From positions 575,001-607,000 of the forward strand of contig NZ_CP157942.1 in assembly GCF_040207875.1 (NCBI RefSeq): a DNA stretch of 32,000 nucleotides, written 5' to 3'. Below are positions 24,298 through 31,402 of the stretch, in pieces; position 1 is the first letter of the stretch, and each line of letters opens with the position of its first letter. The position numbers and the translations under genes are program-made. The notes beneath the pieces are model-generated. The model was not told where the DNA came from. It searched no databases and was given only the letters and a program-made list of their open reading frames with translations. This stretch comes from Wolbachia endosymbiont of Armadillidium arcangelii. GTDB lineage: Bacteria; Pseudomonadota; Alphaproteobacteria; Rickettsiales; Anaplasmataceae.

Positions 24298-27200
24298 ATG
24301 AATATTGTATTTTATTGTGAAGAGTTTAATGACTGTGATTTAGACAATGGTAAAACTCCTTTAAGGAAAAAGTTCAATGAAATAATTAAAGATTTAAAGG
24401 AAAACAACAGTACAAGCCAAGGAAATATAAAGTTAATAAAAGGTTGTGGGAATATTGAATATTTTCGAGCTAAATTAAGTGATAGTGACAGATTACTATT
24501 TACGAGGAGAAAGCATAATGACAAAGATGCTTTTGTTATTTTAGAAGTAATTCTGAATCATGATTATCATAAGTCTAAATTTTTAACAAATAGAGAAAAA
24601 ATAAGAAACATAAAAATAATAGATGAAAAAGTTCCTGATACAGTAGAGATTGAAGATGCTCCACAAATTCGTTGGTTAGGTAATTTTATTACTTTTAGTG
24701 CAAAGCAGGAAGATATAGTTGAAAGAGTTGAAAAGTTTGAATTACCTTTAGTTATTAGTGGACCTGCTGGCAGTGGAAAGACATCAGTGGCTTTGGAGAG
24801 CCTAAAAAGGATAAAAGAGAAGTTTGAGGGAGGAAAAATTCTATATATTACCAAATCCGAAAATCTTATAAAAGAATCAAAAAAAATATTTGAATGTGAA
24901 AATTACAATCAGACTACTGATGAACTAAGGACTCATACTCCAGAAGAAATTGATTTCTTATCTCTTCATGAATTTTTAAAAAAGATAATAAAAGTAGAAG
25001 GAAAGAAACCAATCAATAGAAGTAAGTTTTTTTCATGGTTCAAGGAAATATGCAAGAAAGATAAATTTAAAGGGTATAAAAAAGACGGAGATAAAATATT
25101 CGAAGAATTTACAGCTGTGATAGGTGGAGGAAGTTTATTAGGAGAAGATGGAAAAGATAGATATGCTAAATTAGGAAATAGACAATCTATATTTCCTATA
25201 GATAAAAGGAACAGTGTTTATGATTTTTTTGAAGAATATAGGAAATTTATAGAAGGAGATCAAAAGTATTATGATCCTAATCTTGTTGCTTATGAGTGCA
25301 TTGCAGAAGAAATGTATAATGCGATTGTTGTAGATGAAGTTCAAGATTTAACTGAAAGTACACTGAGTTTAATCTTGAAAAGTTTAAAAGATGAAAGAAA
25401 GGGTAATTTTTTATTATGTGGTGATGTTGATCAAGTAATACATCCTAGTTTTTTCTCTTTATCTAAGTTAAAATCTTTTCTCTATCAAAATAAATGTATA
25501 AGGGACCAAGGGTCAGAAGTTTTTTATACCCTTGAGAAAAATTATCGTAATAGCGAGCAAGCTATTGAACTTGCCAATCGTATACTACATCTTAAAAATT
25601 ATTGTTTTGCTTCGGAAGATAAAATGATAGTAGATAACGCTTTTTTCATGAAGAGTGATACTAAGAACAAAGGGAACGTTGGCTTTGTTACTGATGATAA
25701 AAAAGAAGAAATAGCAAAAAAAGTAAATGAATCTATGAATTGTGCTGTTTTAGCTCTGGATGATGAAAGTAAAGAAAGTGCACGTCAGTTATTTGATACT
25801 CCACTTGTGTTTAATATACATGAAGCCAAAGGCTTGGAGTTTGAAAATGTGATTCTTTACAAGTTTACATCGTGTAAAGCTTATAATGAAATATGGAATA
25901 TAGTATGTCCGGATAAAAGTGAGGGTGAAATAGATAATACTATTAATAGGATTCGTGATTCATATAACAAAAAGGATGTTAATACTTCAAGAAATAAGGA
26001 TAAGGAAGATAAGTCCTTGGAGAAATATAAATTTTATATGAACGCTCTGTATGTTGGAGTTACTCGTGCTGTTAGTAATATCTATATTGTAGATGATAAA
26101 AGTAATTTATTGAAAATAGTAGAACCAGGGGAAGAAGGTAATGTGAATATTAAGAAAGAAGAATCCAGTTCTGAAAAATGGAGAGATATGGCACTGGAGT
26201 TAATAGAGAAAGGAAACATAGAGCAAGCTAAAGATATAGCAGAAAAATTGTCACGTAAAGGGGAAAAAGAATATGCTAAAGAGGTTATGAATTCATTGAA
26301 AGCTAAAGGATGTCATAAACAGGATCAGAACTCAGATAAGAGCAAGCATACAAATTCAGTGTTAGAGAGTTCTAAATCTTCCTCACAAAGCTCAGAACAT
26401 GAAGGAAAAGAAGATGATATTAGCAAATCTCAGAATAAAAAGAGTAAACATAATCAAAACAAAAAGAAGAAAGCTAAGAAATGTAATAAAGTTCAAGAGG
26501 TGAAGCCACAGCTTTCTTTAAATGAGAAGGATAGTACTAATAAGAGTACAAACCCTCAGAATGAAGAGCATAAACAGGATCTAAATGACAAAAAGGAATC
26601 AAAAAGATTAGAGAAAAATAAAAAGGAATTATTTTTAGCTTTAAAAAATGGTAATTTGCAAAAGGCTAAACGGTTAATTAAGCAAGGAGTTAATGTTAAT
26701 GATAGTAATGAGGAAGGTAGTACTCCTTTACATTTGGCAGCAGAAAATGGTTACTTTGATATAGTTAAACTTTTTCTAGAGAATGGAGCTAAGGTTGATG
26801 ATAGGGATATTTTGAATCGTACTCCTTTACATTTGGCAGCAGAAAATGGTTACTTTGATATAGTTAAACTTTTTCTAGAGAATGGAGCTAAGGTTGATGA
26901 TAGGGATATTTTGAATTGTACTCCTTTACATTTGGCAGCAAAAAATGGTTACTTTGATATAGCTCAACTTCTTTTGCAGTATAAAGCTGAAGTTAATACC
27001 AAAGATACTTCAAGTCATACTCCTTTATATTTGGCAGCACAGAATGGTCACTATGAAGTAGTTAAACTTCTCCTAGATAATGGTGCGGATGTCAATGCTA
27101 AGAATAAGAAAGGTGTTACTTGTTTACATTTTGCAGCACAGAATGGTCACTATGAAATAGTTAAACTTCTTCTAGAGAATGGAGCTAAGGTTGATGATAG

Positions 27201-28239
27201 GGATATTTTGAATTGTACTCCTTTACGTATGGCAGCAAAAAATGGTTACTTTGATATAGTTAAACTTTTTCTAGAGAATGGAGCTAAGGTTGATGATAGG
27301 GATATTTTGAATTGTACTCCTTTACGTGTGGCAGCACAGAATGGTCACTATGAAGTAGTTAAACTTCTCCTAGATAATGGTGCGGATGTCAATGCTAAGA
27401 ATAAGAAAGGTGTTACTTGTTTACATTTTGCAGCACAGAATGGTCACTATGAAATAGTTAAACTTCTTCTAGAGAATGGAGCTAAGGTTGATGCTAGGGA
27501 TATTTTGAATTGTACTCCTTTACGTATGGCAGCAAAAAATGGTTACTTTGATATAGCTCAACTTCTTCTGGAGCATGGAGCTGATGTTAATGCTAGTAAT
27601 AAGGAAGGTAGTACTCCTTTACATTTGGCAGCAGAGAATGGTTATAAGAATGTAGTTGAAATTCTTCTGAGGAATAAAGCTAATATTGATGCTAGGAATA
27701 ATTTTAATTGTACTCCTTTGTTGAACGCACTAAAAGAAGGCCATTCCGAGATAGTTGACCTTCTGCTTGCTAACCCAAATATTAATGTTGGTTATTCAAA
27801 AGCTTCGTCTGCTAAAAAGAAAGAAGACAAAGAAAGATTTCTCCAAAAATTATCTCAAGATAATGAGTTGTTTAATCTGATAAAACAAGCAGCAGAAATA
27901 GATGAAAATAAGGTAGATGAATTACTCAAAAAGATAGAGAAATTACTGGAATCAAAAAACAAACATAGTTTCAAACCAAGCTTAAACTACTCTCCAGATG
28001 GTAATGATGAAAATACGACTATTAAAATTGCTATTAAAGCTAGTGGAAAGGTATTGCAGCTCTTATATGATTATGCGGAGAAGAATATAGGTACAGACAC
28101 TGAAATATTTAAAAAATTAAAACATGCTAAAGAAAACTCTCAGTCTAAGAGAGATCTTTGTAATGTTTCTGTCTCTAATCATTCTACTTTAACTCAAAGC
28201 CCCTCATTTGATGAGAGAGGATTTAGTGCCAAAGTATAA
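24298..28239 (+). CDS. 1313-aa multidomain protein: N-terminal YoeB/RelE-like toxin fold, UvrD-like SF1 helicase/ATPase, Lys/Ser-rich disordered linker with an NLS-like basic cluster, ~12 ankyrin repeats, and a helical C-terminal tail
   Basis: The N-terminus (aa 1-95) resembles YoeB: KKFNEIIKD..., YFRAKLSDSDRLLF, VILEVILNHDY. Helicase motifs: I GPAGSGKT (24760-24783), Ia ILYITKSENL, II VVDEVQDL (DEVQD at 25333-25347), III LLCGDVDQVI, IV LEKNYRNSEQAIELANRIL, V NIHEAKGLEFENVILY, VI ALYVGVTRAVSNIYIV. Basic cluster: KKSKHNQNKKKKAKK (26437-26481). ANK units of 33 aa, TPLHLAAxNG(Y/H)xxxVKLLLxNGAxV(D/N), run from about 26626 to 27780. Confidence 0.9.
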   Translation: MNIVFYCEEFNDCDLDNGKTPLRKKFNEIIKDLKENNSTSQGNIKLIKGCGNIEYFRAKLSDSDRLLFTRRKHNDKDAFVILEVILNHDYHKSKFLTNREKIRNIKIIDEKVPDTVEIEDAPQIRWLGNFITFSAKQEDIVERVEKFELPLVISGPAGSGKTSVALESLKRIKEKFEGGKILYITKSENLIKESKKIFECENYNQTTDELRTHTPEEIDFLSLHEFLKKIIKVEGKKPINRSKFFSWFKEICKKDKFKGYKKDGDKIFEEFTAVIGGGSLLGEDGKDRYAKLGNRQSIFPIDKRNSVYDFFEEYRKFIEGDQKYYDPNLVAYECIAEEMYNAIVVDEVQDLTESTLSLILKSLKDERKGNFLLCGDVDQVIHPSFFSLSKLKSFLYQNKCIRDQGSEVFYTLEKNYRNSEQAIELANRILHLKNYCFASEDKMIVDNAFFMKSDTKNKGNVGFVTDDKKEEIAKKVNESMNCAVLALDDESKESARQLFDTPLVFNIHEAKGLEFENVILYKFTSCKAYNEIWNIVCPDKSEGEIDNTINRIRDSYNKKDVNTSRNKDKEDKSLEKYKFYMNALYVGVTRAVSNIYIVDDKSNLLKIVEPGEEGNVNIKKEESSSEKWRDMALELIEKGNIEQAKDIAEKLSRKGEKEYAKEVMNSLKAKGCHKQDQNSDKSKHTNSVLESSKSSSQSSEHEGKEDDISKSQNKKSKHNQNKKKKAKKCNKVQEVKPQLSLNEKDSTNKSTNPQNEEHKQDLNDKKESKRLEKNKKELFLALKNGNLQKAKRLIKQGVNVNDSNEEGSTPLHLAAENGYFDIVKLFLENGAKVDDRDILNRTPLHLAAENGYFDIVKLFLENGAKVDDRDILNCTPLHLAAKNGYFDIAQLLLQYKAEVNTKDTSSHTPLYLAAQNGHYEVVKLLLDNGADVNAKNKKGVTCLHFAAQNGHYEIVKLLLENGAKVDDRDILNCTPLRMAAKNGYFDIVKLFLENGAKVDDRDILNCTPLRVAAQNGHYEVVKLLLDNGADVNAKNKKGVTCLHFAAQNGHYEIVKLLLENGAKVDARDILNCTPLRMAAKNGYFDIAQLLLEHGADVNASNKEGSTPLHLAAENGYKNVVEILLRNKANIDARNNFNCTPLLNALKEGHSEIVDLLLANPNINVGYSKASSAKKKEDKERFLQKLSQDNELFNLIKQAAEIDENKVDELLKKIEKLLESKNKHSFKPSLNYSPDGNDENTTIKIAIKASGKVLQLLYDYAEKNIGTDTEIFKKLKHAKENSQSKRDLCNVSVSNHSTLTQSPSFDERGFSAKV
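26722..26919 (+). repeat. Two tandem 99-bp ankyrin-repeat units, 98/99 identical
   Basis: 26722-26820 and 26821-26919 differ only at one base (cgt vs tgt, Arg/Cys). Confidence 0.95.
27034..27556 (+). repeat. 297-bp-period duplication (three ANK units) inside the ankyrin array
   Basis: 27034-27259 and 27331-27556 (226 bp each) differ at a single base (gat gat agg vs gat gct agg). Confidence 0.95.
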
Positions 28240-28501: not shown

Positions 28502-30128
28502 ATGATTTTCGGTAATAATAATTTATTAATTAATGCTTCAAGTATAGGTGACCTTAGTAAAGTTAAAGAACTTCTTGGAAATTGAGCTAATATTTATGCT
28601 AGAGACGAGAGAAGCAATACTGCTCTGCATGTGGCTGCTATGAATGGTCATTTAAATGTAGTAAAAGAGCTTTTAAGCAGAGGGGCTGTGATTTATACTG
28701 AAAATAAAGATTATTTCACACCTTTTGAATTAGCAAACAACGAAGGTAAGTTGGAAGTAGTAAATTTTCTTTTAAATCGCCAAGACAATTATGGCAAGCG
28801 TTACTGCATTATGCTATTAATAATAGAAACCAAAAATTGATAGATCTTTTATTAGGGAAAAGGGCTGATGTTAATGTTAAAGACAAAAAAGGGGATACTC
28901 CCCTGCATGTTGCTGTAATGACTAGTAATTTGTTTACTGATGAAATGTCTGATTTTTTGGATATGGTAAGAAAGCTTTTAGATAAAGGGGCTAAGATTTA
29001 TACTAGAAATAAAGGTAGTTTCACACCTTTAGGATTAGTAAAAAGAGGAAGTGACTTGGAGATGTTTTTTTTAATTACCAAGACAATTCTGGTAGTACGT
29101 TACTGCATCATGCTGCTTTTGATAATGACCCAAAATTGATAAAATTTTTATTAAATGAATTAAAGTTTAATATTAATATTATAAACGAAGAAGGCAATAC
29201 TCCTCTGCATGTTGCTGCGAGGTATGGTCGGTTAGATGCAGTAAAAGGGCTTTTAAGCAGAAGGGCTAATATTGATGCTAGAAACAATGTAAACAATACT
29301 CCTCTGCATATTGCTGCAAGGTATGGTCAGTTAGATGTAGTAAAAGAGCTTTTAGACAAAAAGGCTAAGATTTATACTGGAAACAAAGCAGGCAATGCTC
29401 CTCTGCATGTTGCTGCAAGGTATGGTCAGTTAGATGTAGTAAAAGAGCTTTTAGACAAAAAGGTTAAGATCAATACTGAAAACGGTATAGGCAGTACTCC
29501 TCTGCATGTTGCTGCAAGGTATGGTCAGTTAGATGTAGTAAAAGAGCTTTTAACCAGAAGGGCTAATATTGATGATGAAAACAAAAAAGGCAATACTCCT
29601 CTGTATGTAGCTGATATTAATGCTAAAAATAATAATAATTCTACTGCTCTGCATGTTGCTGCAAGATATGGTCATTTAAATATAGTAAGAGAGCTTCTAG
29701 ACAAAAAGGCTAAGATTTATGCTAAAAACACTGTAGGCAATACTCCTCTGCATGTTGCTGCAAGATATGGTCATTTGAATATAGTAAGAGAGTTTTTAAA
29801 AAGAGGGGCTAAGACTAATGCTGAAAACAAAAAAAGCGATACTCCTCTGCATGTCGCTGCAAGGCATGATTATTTAGATGTAATAAAAGAGCTTTTAAAC
29901 AAATGGGCTAAGATCAATGCTAAAAACAGTATAGGCGATACTCCTCTGCATGTTGCTGCAAGACATGGTCATTTAAATATAGTAAGAGAGCTTTTAAAAA
30001 GAGGGGCTAATATGTATGCTGAAAACAATGATGATCTTGTACCTTTTGAATTAGTAAACAACGCGGAGGTAGTAAATTTTTTTTTAGATCTCAAAAGCGA
30101 TCGTGTGCTGCAGCAACAAGCAGAATAA
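28502..30128 (+). pseudogene. Ankyrin-repeat gene (~540 codons if intact) disrupted by one nonsense codon and two frameshifts
   Basis: ATG at 28502 (MIFGNNNLLINASSIGDLSKVKELLGN). An in-frame TGA at 28583-28585 sits where the ANK consensus expects Gly (GGA). There is a frame change at about 28796-28800 (..NRQDNYGK / (T)LLHYAINNRNQKLIDLLL). A second frame change falls in the T8 run at 29065-29072 (..LEMFF / NYQDNSGSTLLHHAAFDNDPKLIKFLL). The last piece (29136-30128) holds about 8 units of TPLHVAARYG(Q/H)L(D/N)(V/I)V(K/R)ELL. Confidence 0.75.
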
Positions 30129-30550
30129 TGTTTGTGAGAAGCTTTATTGAAGATGAAGGAAGGTCCTTCGAAATCGGTTTTCAGGAGCAGGTTTCAAACC
30201 ACCTTAAGTGGCTCTATTTAAGAGATAGGGTCATAAGCGTTAAGGAAAAATCAGCGTAAGAGCTGGAAGGTGAGGATCAGAAAGGCGAACGTAAGTGAAC
30301 CACTGATGAACGTGTCGAAATGGGAAGTGAACATCGAAAGGGGGAGTGAGTCGTCACTGCCATTAAGTTAAGGGAAAGAGAAGTTAAGATTGGACAAAAA
30401 ATTTGAAGCGATTGATAATTATGGTAAATACTAGGGTGAATTTTTAAGAAAAGGGAGTCTGAAAAGTGCAAGTTATTTAAAAAAGTAATAATTGCAGGTT
30501 ATTTTGCAAAGAATGTACTAATGCAATGATACTGAAAAGATATCTTGAAT

Positions 30551-31402
30551 TTAAAACACATGTTTTCTAGCTCTTTTCTGGTAGTTGAGTGAACGAATAT
30601 CAGATATCTTATGACGATCAACTCTTCTCCCTTTTCTTACCACTAAAGTGTTCATCAAAAATAACTGTGATAGTCGATCCATAATGCAGTCTATGTCTGA
30701 CTCTGTAGAAAAAATATCAAAGGCTAAGTTTTTAATCGCATTAAATGAGACAGATTTATTGATGCTTTTTTTTAGTTTACTATTCTGTGCGCTCAATGTC
30801 TCTTCATCATCTTCTATCATGATACTTTCTAGATTACTGATGAAGATAGTTGACCAAAAATCCTGCTTGATAGTTTCAATACTTTTTCCTGTGAAATTCT
30901 CTAAATTTAATCTTCCCTTCAGCCTAAAAAAAAATGTTTCTACTCCCCAGCGCAAGTAATATAATCTCTCAAACTCTTCGACTGTAAAACTTTGCTCATC
31001 TAACAGAGATGTTACTAACACTTCAACTTCTCCAGAAGAAAGTATTATTTTGACTAACCTGAATTTCATCTCATCAGGTAATCCTAGCTTTCGTAGCTGT
31101 CTTGCTACTTTAATAGGTGCGGTAGACACTACCACCATACTAGATGGGCTTTCCGGCTTAAACATAGCGTTTATTTCATTGAAAGACGAACTTGGACAGC
31201 GAATTATATAATTGATTTTCCTTCCTGTAAGCTCAGCAAGAAATCGATAAGATACGTATCCTCTATCACAGATTAACAAATCGTCTGATTTTATGGATTC
31301 AAGCATACCGATCGCTAAATCAACCTCATAGCTGTCACCTCTACTTAGCTGTAATAGTTTAGATTTGATCTGACAGGTTAATAAAGTAAGATAAAAATAC
31401 AA
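30551..31402 (-). mobile_element. IS4-family (DDE_Tnp_1-type) transposase gene, N-terminally truncated
   Basis: 283 aa. LLICDRGYVSYRFL (first Asp) lies only about 45 aa from the ORF start, against about 100+ aa in intact IS4-type enzymes. YYLRWGVETFFFRLKGRLNLENFTG is the Y-x2-R-x3-E region. The ORF start abuts the next IS copy. Confidence 0.75.

Follow-up and report, generated by a model that had tools for sequence, protein, structure and literature searches.

YoeB, a toxin of the RelE/YoeB/ParE superfamily, cleaves mRNA in a ribosome-dependent manner through Glu46, Arg65, His83 and Tyr84, and RelE uses a Lys/Arg/Tyr set. In Nhi and in the bacterial and animal proteins of Schlafen group-3 type, an N-terminal nuclease-type domain is followed by a superfamily 1 (SF1) helicase in a single chain. 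RNase L combines ankyrin (ANK) repeats, a pseudokinase and a KEN RNase domain, and its RNase is inhibited by the repeats in the absence of ligand. Mogila and colleagues reportedly described Cami1, in 2023, as a CARF-RelE protein of type III CRISPR signalling. Fusions of both the CARF-RelE and the ANK-KEN kind have been listed (PMC3710099), and type II Gabija (a GajB-like helicase with a MazF-like GajC) and DarHTG are tested anti-phage systems that pair a UvrD-like helicase with a toxin-type nuclease fold (PMC13069673). Here we analyzed a gene that encodes a RelE-type fold, an SF1 helicase and a long ANK array in one polypeptide. It lies at 24298..28239 on the forward strand of a 32,000-nucleotide (nt) stretch (the window; all coordinates below are window positions unless a locus is named) from the Wolbachia endosymbiont of Armadillidium arcangelii (contig NZ_CP157942.1, positions 575,001 to 607,000).

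ORF calling in the window returned one uninterrupted, ATG-started open reading frame (ORF) of 1313 amino acids (aa) at this position, and every element that an initial annotation, made from the letters alone, had listed in it is present (Table 1). The encoded protein is identical to database entry WP_349968214.1 ('ankyrin repeat domain-containing protein', Wolbachia endosymbiont of Armadillidium). Pfam gave no match to aa 1-130, the basic linker or the C-terminal tail. As described below, the protein belongs to a large and widely distributed bacterial family, and we consider that its most likely function is that of a self-contained conflict protein of the abortive-infection or defence type, in which a helicase would gate a RelE-type RNase. 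We put the probability of this function at roughly 0.45, a value held down by the weak neighbourhood evidence.

An AlphaFold2 model of aa 1-124 (predicted local distance difference test score, pLDDT, 82; predicted template modelling score, pTM, 0.74) has a beta-alpha-alpha-beta4 topology, in keeping with the compact alpha/beta fold of this superfamily, in which N-terminal helices pack on a 4-5-stranded antiparallel sheet. When this model was compared with the PDB by Foldseek, the top 15 matches were all toxins of the RelE/YoeB/ParE/YafQ/HigB2 type, including archaeal RelE, Agrobacterium YoeB/ParE, S. aureus YoeB, an H. pylori toxin (4lsy), YafQ and HigB2, with target-normalised template modelling scores (TM-scores) of 0.53-0.76 and probabilities of 0.84-1.0. 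Archaeal RelE (1wmi_A) was matched with an E-value of 9.6e-4, and 6n90 with a target-normalised TM-score of 0.76, a root-mean-square deviation of 2.5 A and a probability of 1.0. The initial annotation had aligned the N-terminus to YoeB by eye; at the level of the predicted structure the RelE/YoeB-superfamily fold is confirmed, and membership of the YoeB family proper, for which no significant sequence match was obtained, is not.

The conservation of polar residues in this domain is consistent with an active or ligand-binding site. Among about 50 relatives of 24-40% identity, H88, Y90 and S93 never vary, conservation of R57, R65 and E83 reaches at least 90%, and the Shigella copy retains the conserved polar residues. 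An hhalign comparison of the family with an alignment of database homologues of E. coli YoeB, the score of which is weighed below, fell into the same register as the one read by eye, with KKFNEIIKD opposite KKINELIKD and YFRAKLSDSDRLLF opposite FWSRRITEEHRLVY. In this register the R65 of the family is aligned with R65 of YoeB, and the position of YoeB Glu46 is occupied by Lys, which would make the family more RelE-like. The invariant His-x-Tyr (H88/Y90) after the last strand may lie opposite YoeB H83/Y84, in a register that was set by hand and not computed. Two of 39 family N-termini touched the Pfam model PF24732 ParE_like (best E 3.1e-5), and one of them, rescanned alone, scored 13.8 bits, under the 24.4-bit cut-off. 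From the fold and these residues we infer that the domain would act as an RNase.

The helicase that follows carries all core motifs of a UvrD-like SF1 enzyme, as first read from the sequence. Pfam AAA_19, UvrD-helicase and UvrD_C_2 each match the window protein barely over their cut-offs, and the motifs comprise Q137, G155-T162 (GSGKT at 158-162), DEVQD (D346-E347-x-Q349-D350), G375-D376-x-x-Q379, N415-x-R417-N418, E509-x-K511-G512-L513-E514 and R590, the residues of which are invariant in 53 aligned relatives; motifs Q, I (Walker A), Ia, II (DExx), III, IV, V and VI follow in this order on two RecA-like domains. For an AlphaFold2 model of aa 1-700 (pLDDT 80, pTM 0.71), the best Foldseek matches were PcrA (1qhg, 1pjr), UvrD (2is4, 4c2t) and Rep (1uaa), with E-values of 1e-10 to 6e-13; HelD, UvrD1 and FBH1 were runners-up, and Upf1-like SF1B helicases ranked lower. 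Both Foldseek comparisons suggested earlier thus gave the expected toxin and PcrA/UvrD/Rep matches. Compared directly as sequence, the helicase resembles solved UvrD only marginally (D. radiodurans UvrD, E 0.007), and a long-alignment profile searched against the PDB was uninformative on the helicase, since ankyrin proteins dominated its matches. The helicase is a divergent, UvrD/PcrA-like branch of SF1A with intact ATPase motifs. The linker in front of it has a pLDDT below 50 at aa 109-130 and differs in length and sequence among relatives. The element behind it is folded into three helices (625-637, 641-653 and 657-669; pLDDT about 90), in which W628, L635, G639 and I647 are invariant across the family, with Q643 conserved to at least 90%.

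A search with aa 1-640 returned Wolbachia proteins at 60-98% identity and then hundreds of proteins of about 890-1030 aa at 34-42% identity, which cover 97-100% of the query, the N-terminal domain included (E 1e-93 to 1e-112), and most of which carry ANK repeats. Named sources include Candidatus Tisiphia, Facilibium, Piscirickettsia (a plasmid copy), Methylomonas, Accumulibacter and Rhodocyclaceae. In a scan with one genome per species, at least 437 species carry a relative, most of them free-living bacteria; the matches listed fall into Alpha-, Beta-, Gamma- and Zetaproteobacteria, Desulfovibrionales, Chlorobiaceae, Bacteroidota, Planctomycetota/PVC, Thermodesulfovibrionia and Chloroflexota. 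A profile of the N-terminal domain alone returned 875 clusters at 50% identity, and in the best 150 of these 875 cluster representatives the domain begins no later than residue ~80 and in most cases at residue 1. The length of complete members is 900-1400 aa, and short matches look like contig-end fragments. The family was also found in 142 plasmid records (101 of the Shigella virulence plasmid, 13 of E. coli and 10 of Piscirickettsia, with Methylosinus OB3b also among them) and in 115 of 5426 complete E. coli genomes (~2%), where it is mostly chromosomal; the Shigella and E. coli copies were aligned with 98% coverage (e.g. Shigella WP_164925050.1). A chromosomal Shigella/E. coli homologue is WP_000686652.1. 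It was absent from a phage collection, a result that we count as neutral.

In a co-linear alignment, the position of the array of the window protein is taken in free-living members by two ANK repeats, followed by a conserved C-terminal domain of about 140 aa with the signature RKxRxYxSSxLxxNE...YNRxLFxRxxxGxYxxNP. This domain of the non-Wolbachia relatives has no Pfam match, and a search of its alignment, one ANK repeat included, against the PDB was dominated by ankyrin proteins and uninformative. The window protein is co-linear with the family over the N-terminal domain, the helicase, the post-helicase helices and the ANK repeats downstream. The fusion had been thought special to the Wolbachia lineage, and this is not supported, since relatives that are only about 35-40% identical share it over aa 1-640 and have their repeats at the same place. 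Judged from these alignments, the layout of toxin fold, helicase and ankyrin repeats is ancestral to the family and no Wolbachia invention.

No functional study or description of the family was found in the literature, in agreement with the initial view of the three-way fusion as undescribed. No curated family in PADLOC, NCBIfam or Pfam covers the whole protein, and the matches there are generic or to repeats only. Its members are catalogued in the databases under generic names ('AAA family ATPase', 'UvrD-helicase domain-containing protein', 'ankyrin repeat domain-containing protein') or wrong ones ('Phosphocholine transferase AnkX', 'ATP-dependent DNA helicase Rep'), and the family is uncharacterised in the literature found. 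According to a paper of 2026 (PMC13320244), a 'uvrD' helicase gene of Wolbachia has entered ant genomes three times independently, and its divergence from the Wolbachia sequences known so far exceeds 30%; a link between these transfers and the present family could not be established.

The copies of Wolbachia and Mesenet differ from the other members behind the helicase. Their ANK repeats number 6-12, their linker is basic and disordered and their tail, of about 140 aa, is a different one, and the ancestral C-terminal domain is absent from the window protein and from all of them; therefore, they form a divergent sub-lineage. In the window protein, Lys and Arg make up about 0.2 of the residues in both segments computed (aa 617-700 and aa 701-855), and the linker, which contains KKSKHNQNKKKKAKK as noted initially, is predicted to be disordered at aa 673-700, where the model ends; in free-living relatives its place is taken by a structured, helical segment. 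Direct counting gave 12 repeats, 11 of the TPLH type plus one N-terminal cap, as first proposed, and the Pfam Ank families (E 4.7e-166) see about 11 repeats at aa ~860-1200. Homologues of the tail were found in Wolbachia and Mesenet only, mostly as C-terminal fragments of broken copies of the same gene. By these comparisons, the Wolbachia/Mesenet lineage has enlarged the array from 2 to 6-12 repeats and swapped the ancestral C-terminal domain for the linker and a tail of its own.

The DNA of the array has periods of 99 and 297 nt, with near-identical units and two identical 80-nt stretches. The orthologue of the wVulC strain (1214 aa) is 99% identical (1202/1214) and differs by a clean, three-repeat indel of 99 aa, lacking the block at aa 1007-1105 (27316-27612), in agreement with the 297-nt tandem period. 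This difference in repeat number is either a true polymorphism or an assembly collapse. A version of 1062 aa is also on record under Armadillidium vulgare.

In intact copies, the toxin-fold and helicase modules are under purifying selection. Against three orthologues, including that of Mesenet, the ratio of non-synonymous to synonymous substitution rates (dN/dS) is 0.32-0.37 over the helicase and 0.35-0.47 over the toxin-fold domain, reaches 0.57-0.75 over the ANK repeats plus tail and exceeds 1 in the short linker between the domains. The first 100 codons (24298-24597) are near-identical to those of the orthologue in the Wolbachia strain of Apotomis (locus L087, 7001-7300), with a dS of 0.059 as compared to 0.29 for the helicase, which suggests recombination or gene conversion at the 5' end.

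Table 1. Features of the gene and of its 5' flank, in window positions
Feature	Position	Strand	Basis
Promoter-proximal region / 5' leader	24176..24297	+	Conserved with orthologous locus L087
RelE/ParE/YoeB-superfamily fold domain (predicted), aa 1-97	24298..24588	+	AlphaFold2 model, Foldseek, conserved polar residues, dN/dS 0.35-0.47
Flexible linker, aa 98-133	24589..24696	+	Low pLDDT, variable among relatives, dN/dS >1
SF1A UvrD/PcrA/Rep-like helicase core, aa 134-615	24697..26142	+	Pfam, invariant motifs, Foldseek, dN/dS 0.32-0.37
Walker A of helicase	24760-24783	+	Intact ATPase motif
Conserved three-helix element after helicase, aa 616-672	26143..26313	+	AlphaFold2 helices, invariant residues
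Lys/Ser/Asn-rich low-complexity linker with KKSKHNQNKKKKAKK, aa 673-775	26314..26622	+	Composition; predicted disorder
Ankyrin array, cap + 11 canonical repeats, aa 776-1171	26623..27810	+	Pfam, repeat list
Wolbachia/Mesenet-specific helical C-terminal tail, aa 1172-1313, with stop codon	27811..28239	+	Homologue search

The gene is a solo, mobile, accessory gene without an antitoxin or an obligatory partner. ORF calling and all-against-all BLAST across 80 related loci found no recurrent neighbour family, and therefore there is no conserved antitoxin; the absence of such a partner, first noticed upstream of the gene, is thus borne out on both sides here and in these loci. The 1 kb upstream contains only mechanical ORFs of 40-52 aa, and the arrangement of a small toxin gene with an adjacent cognate antitoxin (YefM-YoeB/RelBE type) is not present, the domain being embedded in a chain of 1313 aa. 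Of this 1-kb spacer, only the ~120 nt that precede the ATG are conserved (86% over 129 nt against L087); the sigma-70-like hexamers at 24241-24278 are consensus matches only, with no enrichment over shuffled sequences.

Further examination of other genomes showed how the gene is carried. In the Apotomis-strain Wolbachia (L087) its neighbours are a prophage-type serine recombinase, further ANK genes, transposases and the reverse transcriptase of a group II intron, and in Piscirickettsia, on the chromosome as well as on the plasmid, it is flanked by a resolvase, insertion sequence (IS) elements and toxin-antitoxin genes. A 970-aa member on the Shigella dysenteriae plasmid pSD1_197 (L089, 7914-10826) is placed between the shf-capU-virK-lpxM cluster and IS elements. 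In E. coli (L090-L092) the gene is cargo of CP4-like integrative islands (YfjI, YfjJ/'inovirus Gp2', AlpA), where a gene of about 170-190 aa (annotated as Gp2 in L091 and as hypothetical in L090 and L092) and a helix-turn-helix/AlpA-type regulator lie just upstream, and an Rpn-family nuclease follows in L090 and L092. Among four further well-annotated loci inspected beyond the scan of flanking ORFs reported below, the Accumulibacter copy (L093) follows a ResIII-PIN-N6_N4_Mtase cluster and the Facilibium copy has an AAA_21-RloB pair nearby. In the nearest flanking ORFs there were single PADLOC matches to AbiEi, DrmD, Csx1, a methyltransferase and a few PDC candidates. The association of the family with defence islands is patchy, and a defence or addiction role, with only some copies in defence-like neighbourhoods, is plausible.

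Comparison with the known systems places the family near several of them. It has the same small alpha/beta fold as the type II toxins of the RelE/YoeB/ParE superfamily (1wmi, YoeB, YafQ, HigB2), with R65 aligned, but these toxins stand alone at about 90 aa, whereas the domain is here fused to a remainder of about 130 kDa (about 90 kDa in the ~900-aa relatives) without an antitoxin. Cami1 likewise joins a RelE-fold effector to a sensor in one polypeptide, in an immune or abortive context and with no separate antitoxin; its sensor, however, is a CARF domain for cyclic oligoadenylate, in place of which the family has the SF1 helicase and ANK repeats, and no CRISPR linkage was seen in the neighbourhoods of the family. 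Nhi and the Schlafen-type proteins share the order of an N-terminal nuclease-type domain and an SF1 helicase in a gene that stands alone, but their nuclease folds are others than the RelE/BECR fold found here, and the ANK repeats are extra in the family. A PADLOC model of Nhi (PDLC02372) matches about 45-60 residues at motif II in two relatives (E ~1e-5) and not the window protein, so that membership in Nhi was rejected; the SLFN-g3_helicase match to the window protein is under the Pfam cut-off. Gabija and DarHTG also combine a UvrD-like SF1 helicase with a nuclease or toxin module, in multi-gene operons as opposed to one chain. GajB models match generic motif regions only (E 1e-5 to 1e-11), no GajA/OLD or GajC partner was seen in the neighbourhoods, and membership in Gabija, in which GajA (OLD/TOPRIM) lies next to GajB, was rejected as no partner gene recurs. 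RNase L, with ANK repeats and an RNase effector in one protein of innate immunity, could serve as a model for the role of the repeats, by analogy only, as its RNase fold is unrelated and the protein is eukaryotic and lacks a helicase. The ankyrin effectors of Anaplasmataceae and Legionella (AnkA, AnkX, AnkY) resemble the window protein in having long ANK arrays in an intracellular bacterium, but the family has no FIC domain and its ANK module was inherited from free-living ancestors. NCBIfam scores for the Legionella effectors AnkX, AnkY and AnkH were 34-252 bits against cut-offs of 500-1400 (AnkY 252 against 600) and came from repeats only, as did the strong PADLOC matches PDC-M72A, 'Ankyrin' and MzaA; all of these assignments were rejected.

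In the mechanism that we propose for a conflict protein, the helicase motor would bind or translocate on nucleic acid that is foreign or abnormal, for instance free ends or intermediates of phage or plasmid replication, as described for GajB, and would be the sensor. Sensing would free the N-terminal RelE-type domain, which would cut RNA, probably mRNA and possibly on the ribosome, and translation would stop, giving a defence phenotype. The ANK/C-terminal part would keep the protein inactive, or bind a protein partner or the trigger, and would stand in for the separate antitoxin of RelE/YoeB systems. In favour of this proposal count the toxin-type fold with its conserved polar residues, the intact helicase, purifying selection on both modules, the constant N-terminal place of the domain, the solo and mobile state of the gene, the copies next to defence genes, and the precedents of type II Gabija and DarHTG.

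A number of results weigh against this proposal. At the sequence level, the N-terminus of the window protein found no match in the PDB in a single-sequence phmmer search, a 39-member family profile of the domain found no solved toxin there, the Pfam models YoeB_toxin (PF06769), ParE_toxin (PF05016) and similar ones did not match the window protein, and hhalign gave the family only 16.7% probability against the YoeB alignment, a similarity that is not significant. ParE-type members share the fold without RNase activity. The 113 nearest flanking ORFs, mostly ordinary genes, contain 93 different Pfam families, none of them in more than two ORFs, and no PADLOC defence family occurs in more than one of these ORFs, so that neither scan points to a clear enrichment; two of the four additional loci lie among housekeeping genes with no defence genes. 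Unlike in many defence families, effector swapping at the N-terminus was not seen, PADLOC has no model that spans the family (its matches lie in the generic UvrD core), and no biochemical or genetic data on any member were found in the literature. To our knowledge, apart from phage WO there is little phage diversity in Wolbachia, which is obligately intracellular. Moreover, at least eight Wolbachia clusters from megabase-scale contigs are truncated or split, for example into 509 + 214 aa in the strain of Anopheles demeilloni and 824 + 195 aa in wCauB, and wMau-type strains have copies without the N-terminal domain; broken copies occur in many strains, where the gene is dispensable.

Some of the same observations would suit an accessory helicase of nucleic-acid metabolism, in which the RelE fold is a non-catalytic adaptor for RNA, the ribosome or a protein, and for which roles in repair, replication restart, transcription or translation quality control, or mobile-element maintenance can be proposed. 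The neighbourhoods consist mostly of metabolic and core genes, into which the family is inserted as a lone gene; neither an antitoxin nor effector swapping was seen; an active toxin permanently attached to its chain would need tight control; the RelE fold is generally known to include non-nucleases such as ParE; and the nearest structures of the motor are repair and replication helicases and the RNA-polymerase-associated HelD. We nevertheless consider such a role unlikely, as the patchy, horizontal distribution (~2% of E. coli, plasmids, islands) and the frequent decay in Wolbachia are atypical of a housekeeping function, and the conserved Arg/His/Tyr/Glu set resembles an active or ligand site and not a scaffold. 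A further reading, compatible with an ancestral conflict function as its lineage-specific re-use, is that of a host-directed effector, secreted for example by a type IV system, whose ANK repeats bind host proteins, whose basic cluster is a nuclear localisation signal and whose modules act on host nucleic acids. The changes specific to the lineage affect just the relevant parts (6-12 repeats as against 2, a Lys-rich linker with KKKKAKK, a new tail), the repeats and tail evolve faster than the enzymatic modules and shift in repeat number between near-identical strains, the gene of another Wolbachia lies beside a prophage-type recombinase and ANK genes, and intracellular or host-associated bacteria (Tisiphia, Legionellales, Piscirickettsia, Endozoicomonas, Shigella pINV) appear by eye over-represented. 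However, the ANK-containing layout is common in free-living methanotrophs, Accumulibacter, green sulfur bacteria and Bacteroidota, and therefore ANK repeats alone are uninformative on secretion; the suggestion that they mark an AnkA-like effector of the host nucleus is not supported. Lys-rich low complexity is also expected at ~30-35% GC, the matches to Legionella effectors are far under their cut-offs, and copies are broken in many Wolbachia strains, so that we regard a host effector as quite unlikely. Its more specific form, a conflict protein retooled by an expanded array, a basic linker for nuclear targeting and an exchanged C-terminus, which is now secreted and acts on host RNA, ribosomes or chromatin in this isopod-feminising symbiont, we judge improbable.

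It could also be argued that the gene is a decaying relic, functionless in Wolbachia and intact here by chance, given the truncated and split clusters and the neighbouring ANK gene, which is itself broken. We think there is little chance of this: a frame of 3942 nt is free of stops in an AT-rich genome, all catalytic motifs are intact, dN/dS is 0.32-0.47 over the N-terminal and helicase parts, and the wVulC copy is 99% identical. An assembly chimera, with the helicase half and the ANK half drawn from different genes, is effectively refuted as an explanation of the architecture. Near-identical 99/297-nt units and identical 80-nt stretches can mislead assemblers, and close strains differ by three repeats, but the same order of helicase, ANK repeats and tail recurs in independent megabase-scale assemblies of other Wolbachia and in Mesenet, and distant relatives have ANK repeats at the same position. 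The architecture is real because these independent assemblies share it, and only the exact repeat number, three fewer in wVulC, is uncertain.

The surroundings of the gene in the window only partly agree with the island that the initial annotation had drawn around it. Upstream lie core genes (ABC1 kinase, ABC ATPase, ZnuA), while downstream a broken ANK gene is followed by a group II intron fragment and a DDE transposase. This ANK gene (28565-30128, +) is split over three frames (28631-28840, 28837-29139 and 29136-30128), has a 99-nt repeat array of its own, and looks frameshifted or decaying. Group II intron RNA domains were matched in RFAM at 30155-30271 (+) and 17011-17146 (+) (RF01999, 100.7 bits; RF02003, 100.1 bits), and the transposase ORF is at 30551-31402 (-); these intron matches and the transposase are mobile-element debris that flanks the region downstream. 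The upstream spacer contains a 20-nt inverted repeat (23667-23686 / 23858-23877, 90% complementary), and a 55-nt stretch at 23876-23930 recurs with 93% identity just downstream of the orthologous gene (L087, 10591-10645). This stretch is a small dispersed repeat, perhaps the element that had been called MITE-like (after miniature inverted-repeat transposable elements). An ORF of 2224 aa occupies 40-6714 (+) in the first 6.7 kb of the window.

Several further details were recorded at related loci. The copy on pSD1_197 is also near ospG and ipaH9.8. Plasmid copies of S. flexneri (H23) and S. dysenteriae (H24) align in two pieces with no annotated feature and may be disrupted, and the copy of E. 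coli strain GF60 is frameshifted. A PRiA4_ORF3 (PF07929) gene lies immediately upstream in Accumulibacter (L093, 9332-9910) and within 2 kb in Piscirickettsia (L004, 3875-4282; L006, 1487-1894). In Methylomonas (L001-L003), about 1.0-1.4 kb upstream are without a called gene, and the genes beyond differ.

If the conflict-protein function is correct, the family would represent a new single-chain coupling of a toxin-antitoxin-type RNase fold to a helicase sensor without an antitoxin gene. It would not be categorically new, as it looks like a conflict protein of the toxin- or nuclease-plus-helicase type in a single chain, and it would stand with Cami1, Nhi, Schlafen-type proteins and type II Gabija among immune or conflict proteins assembled from a shared set of modules. 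As this large family is present without annotation in ~2% of complete E. coli genomes and on the virulence plasmid of Shigella, the hypothesis is testable by standard E. coli genetics, with no need of unculturable Wolbachia. For Wolbachia itself, at least one 'ankyrin gene' appears to be a remodelled bacterial enzyme and no eukaryote-like import, one whose repeat number varies between near-identical feminising strains.

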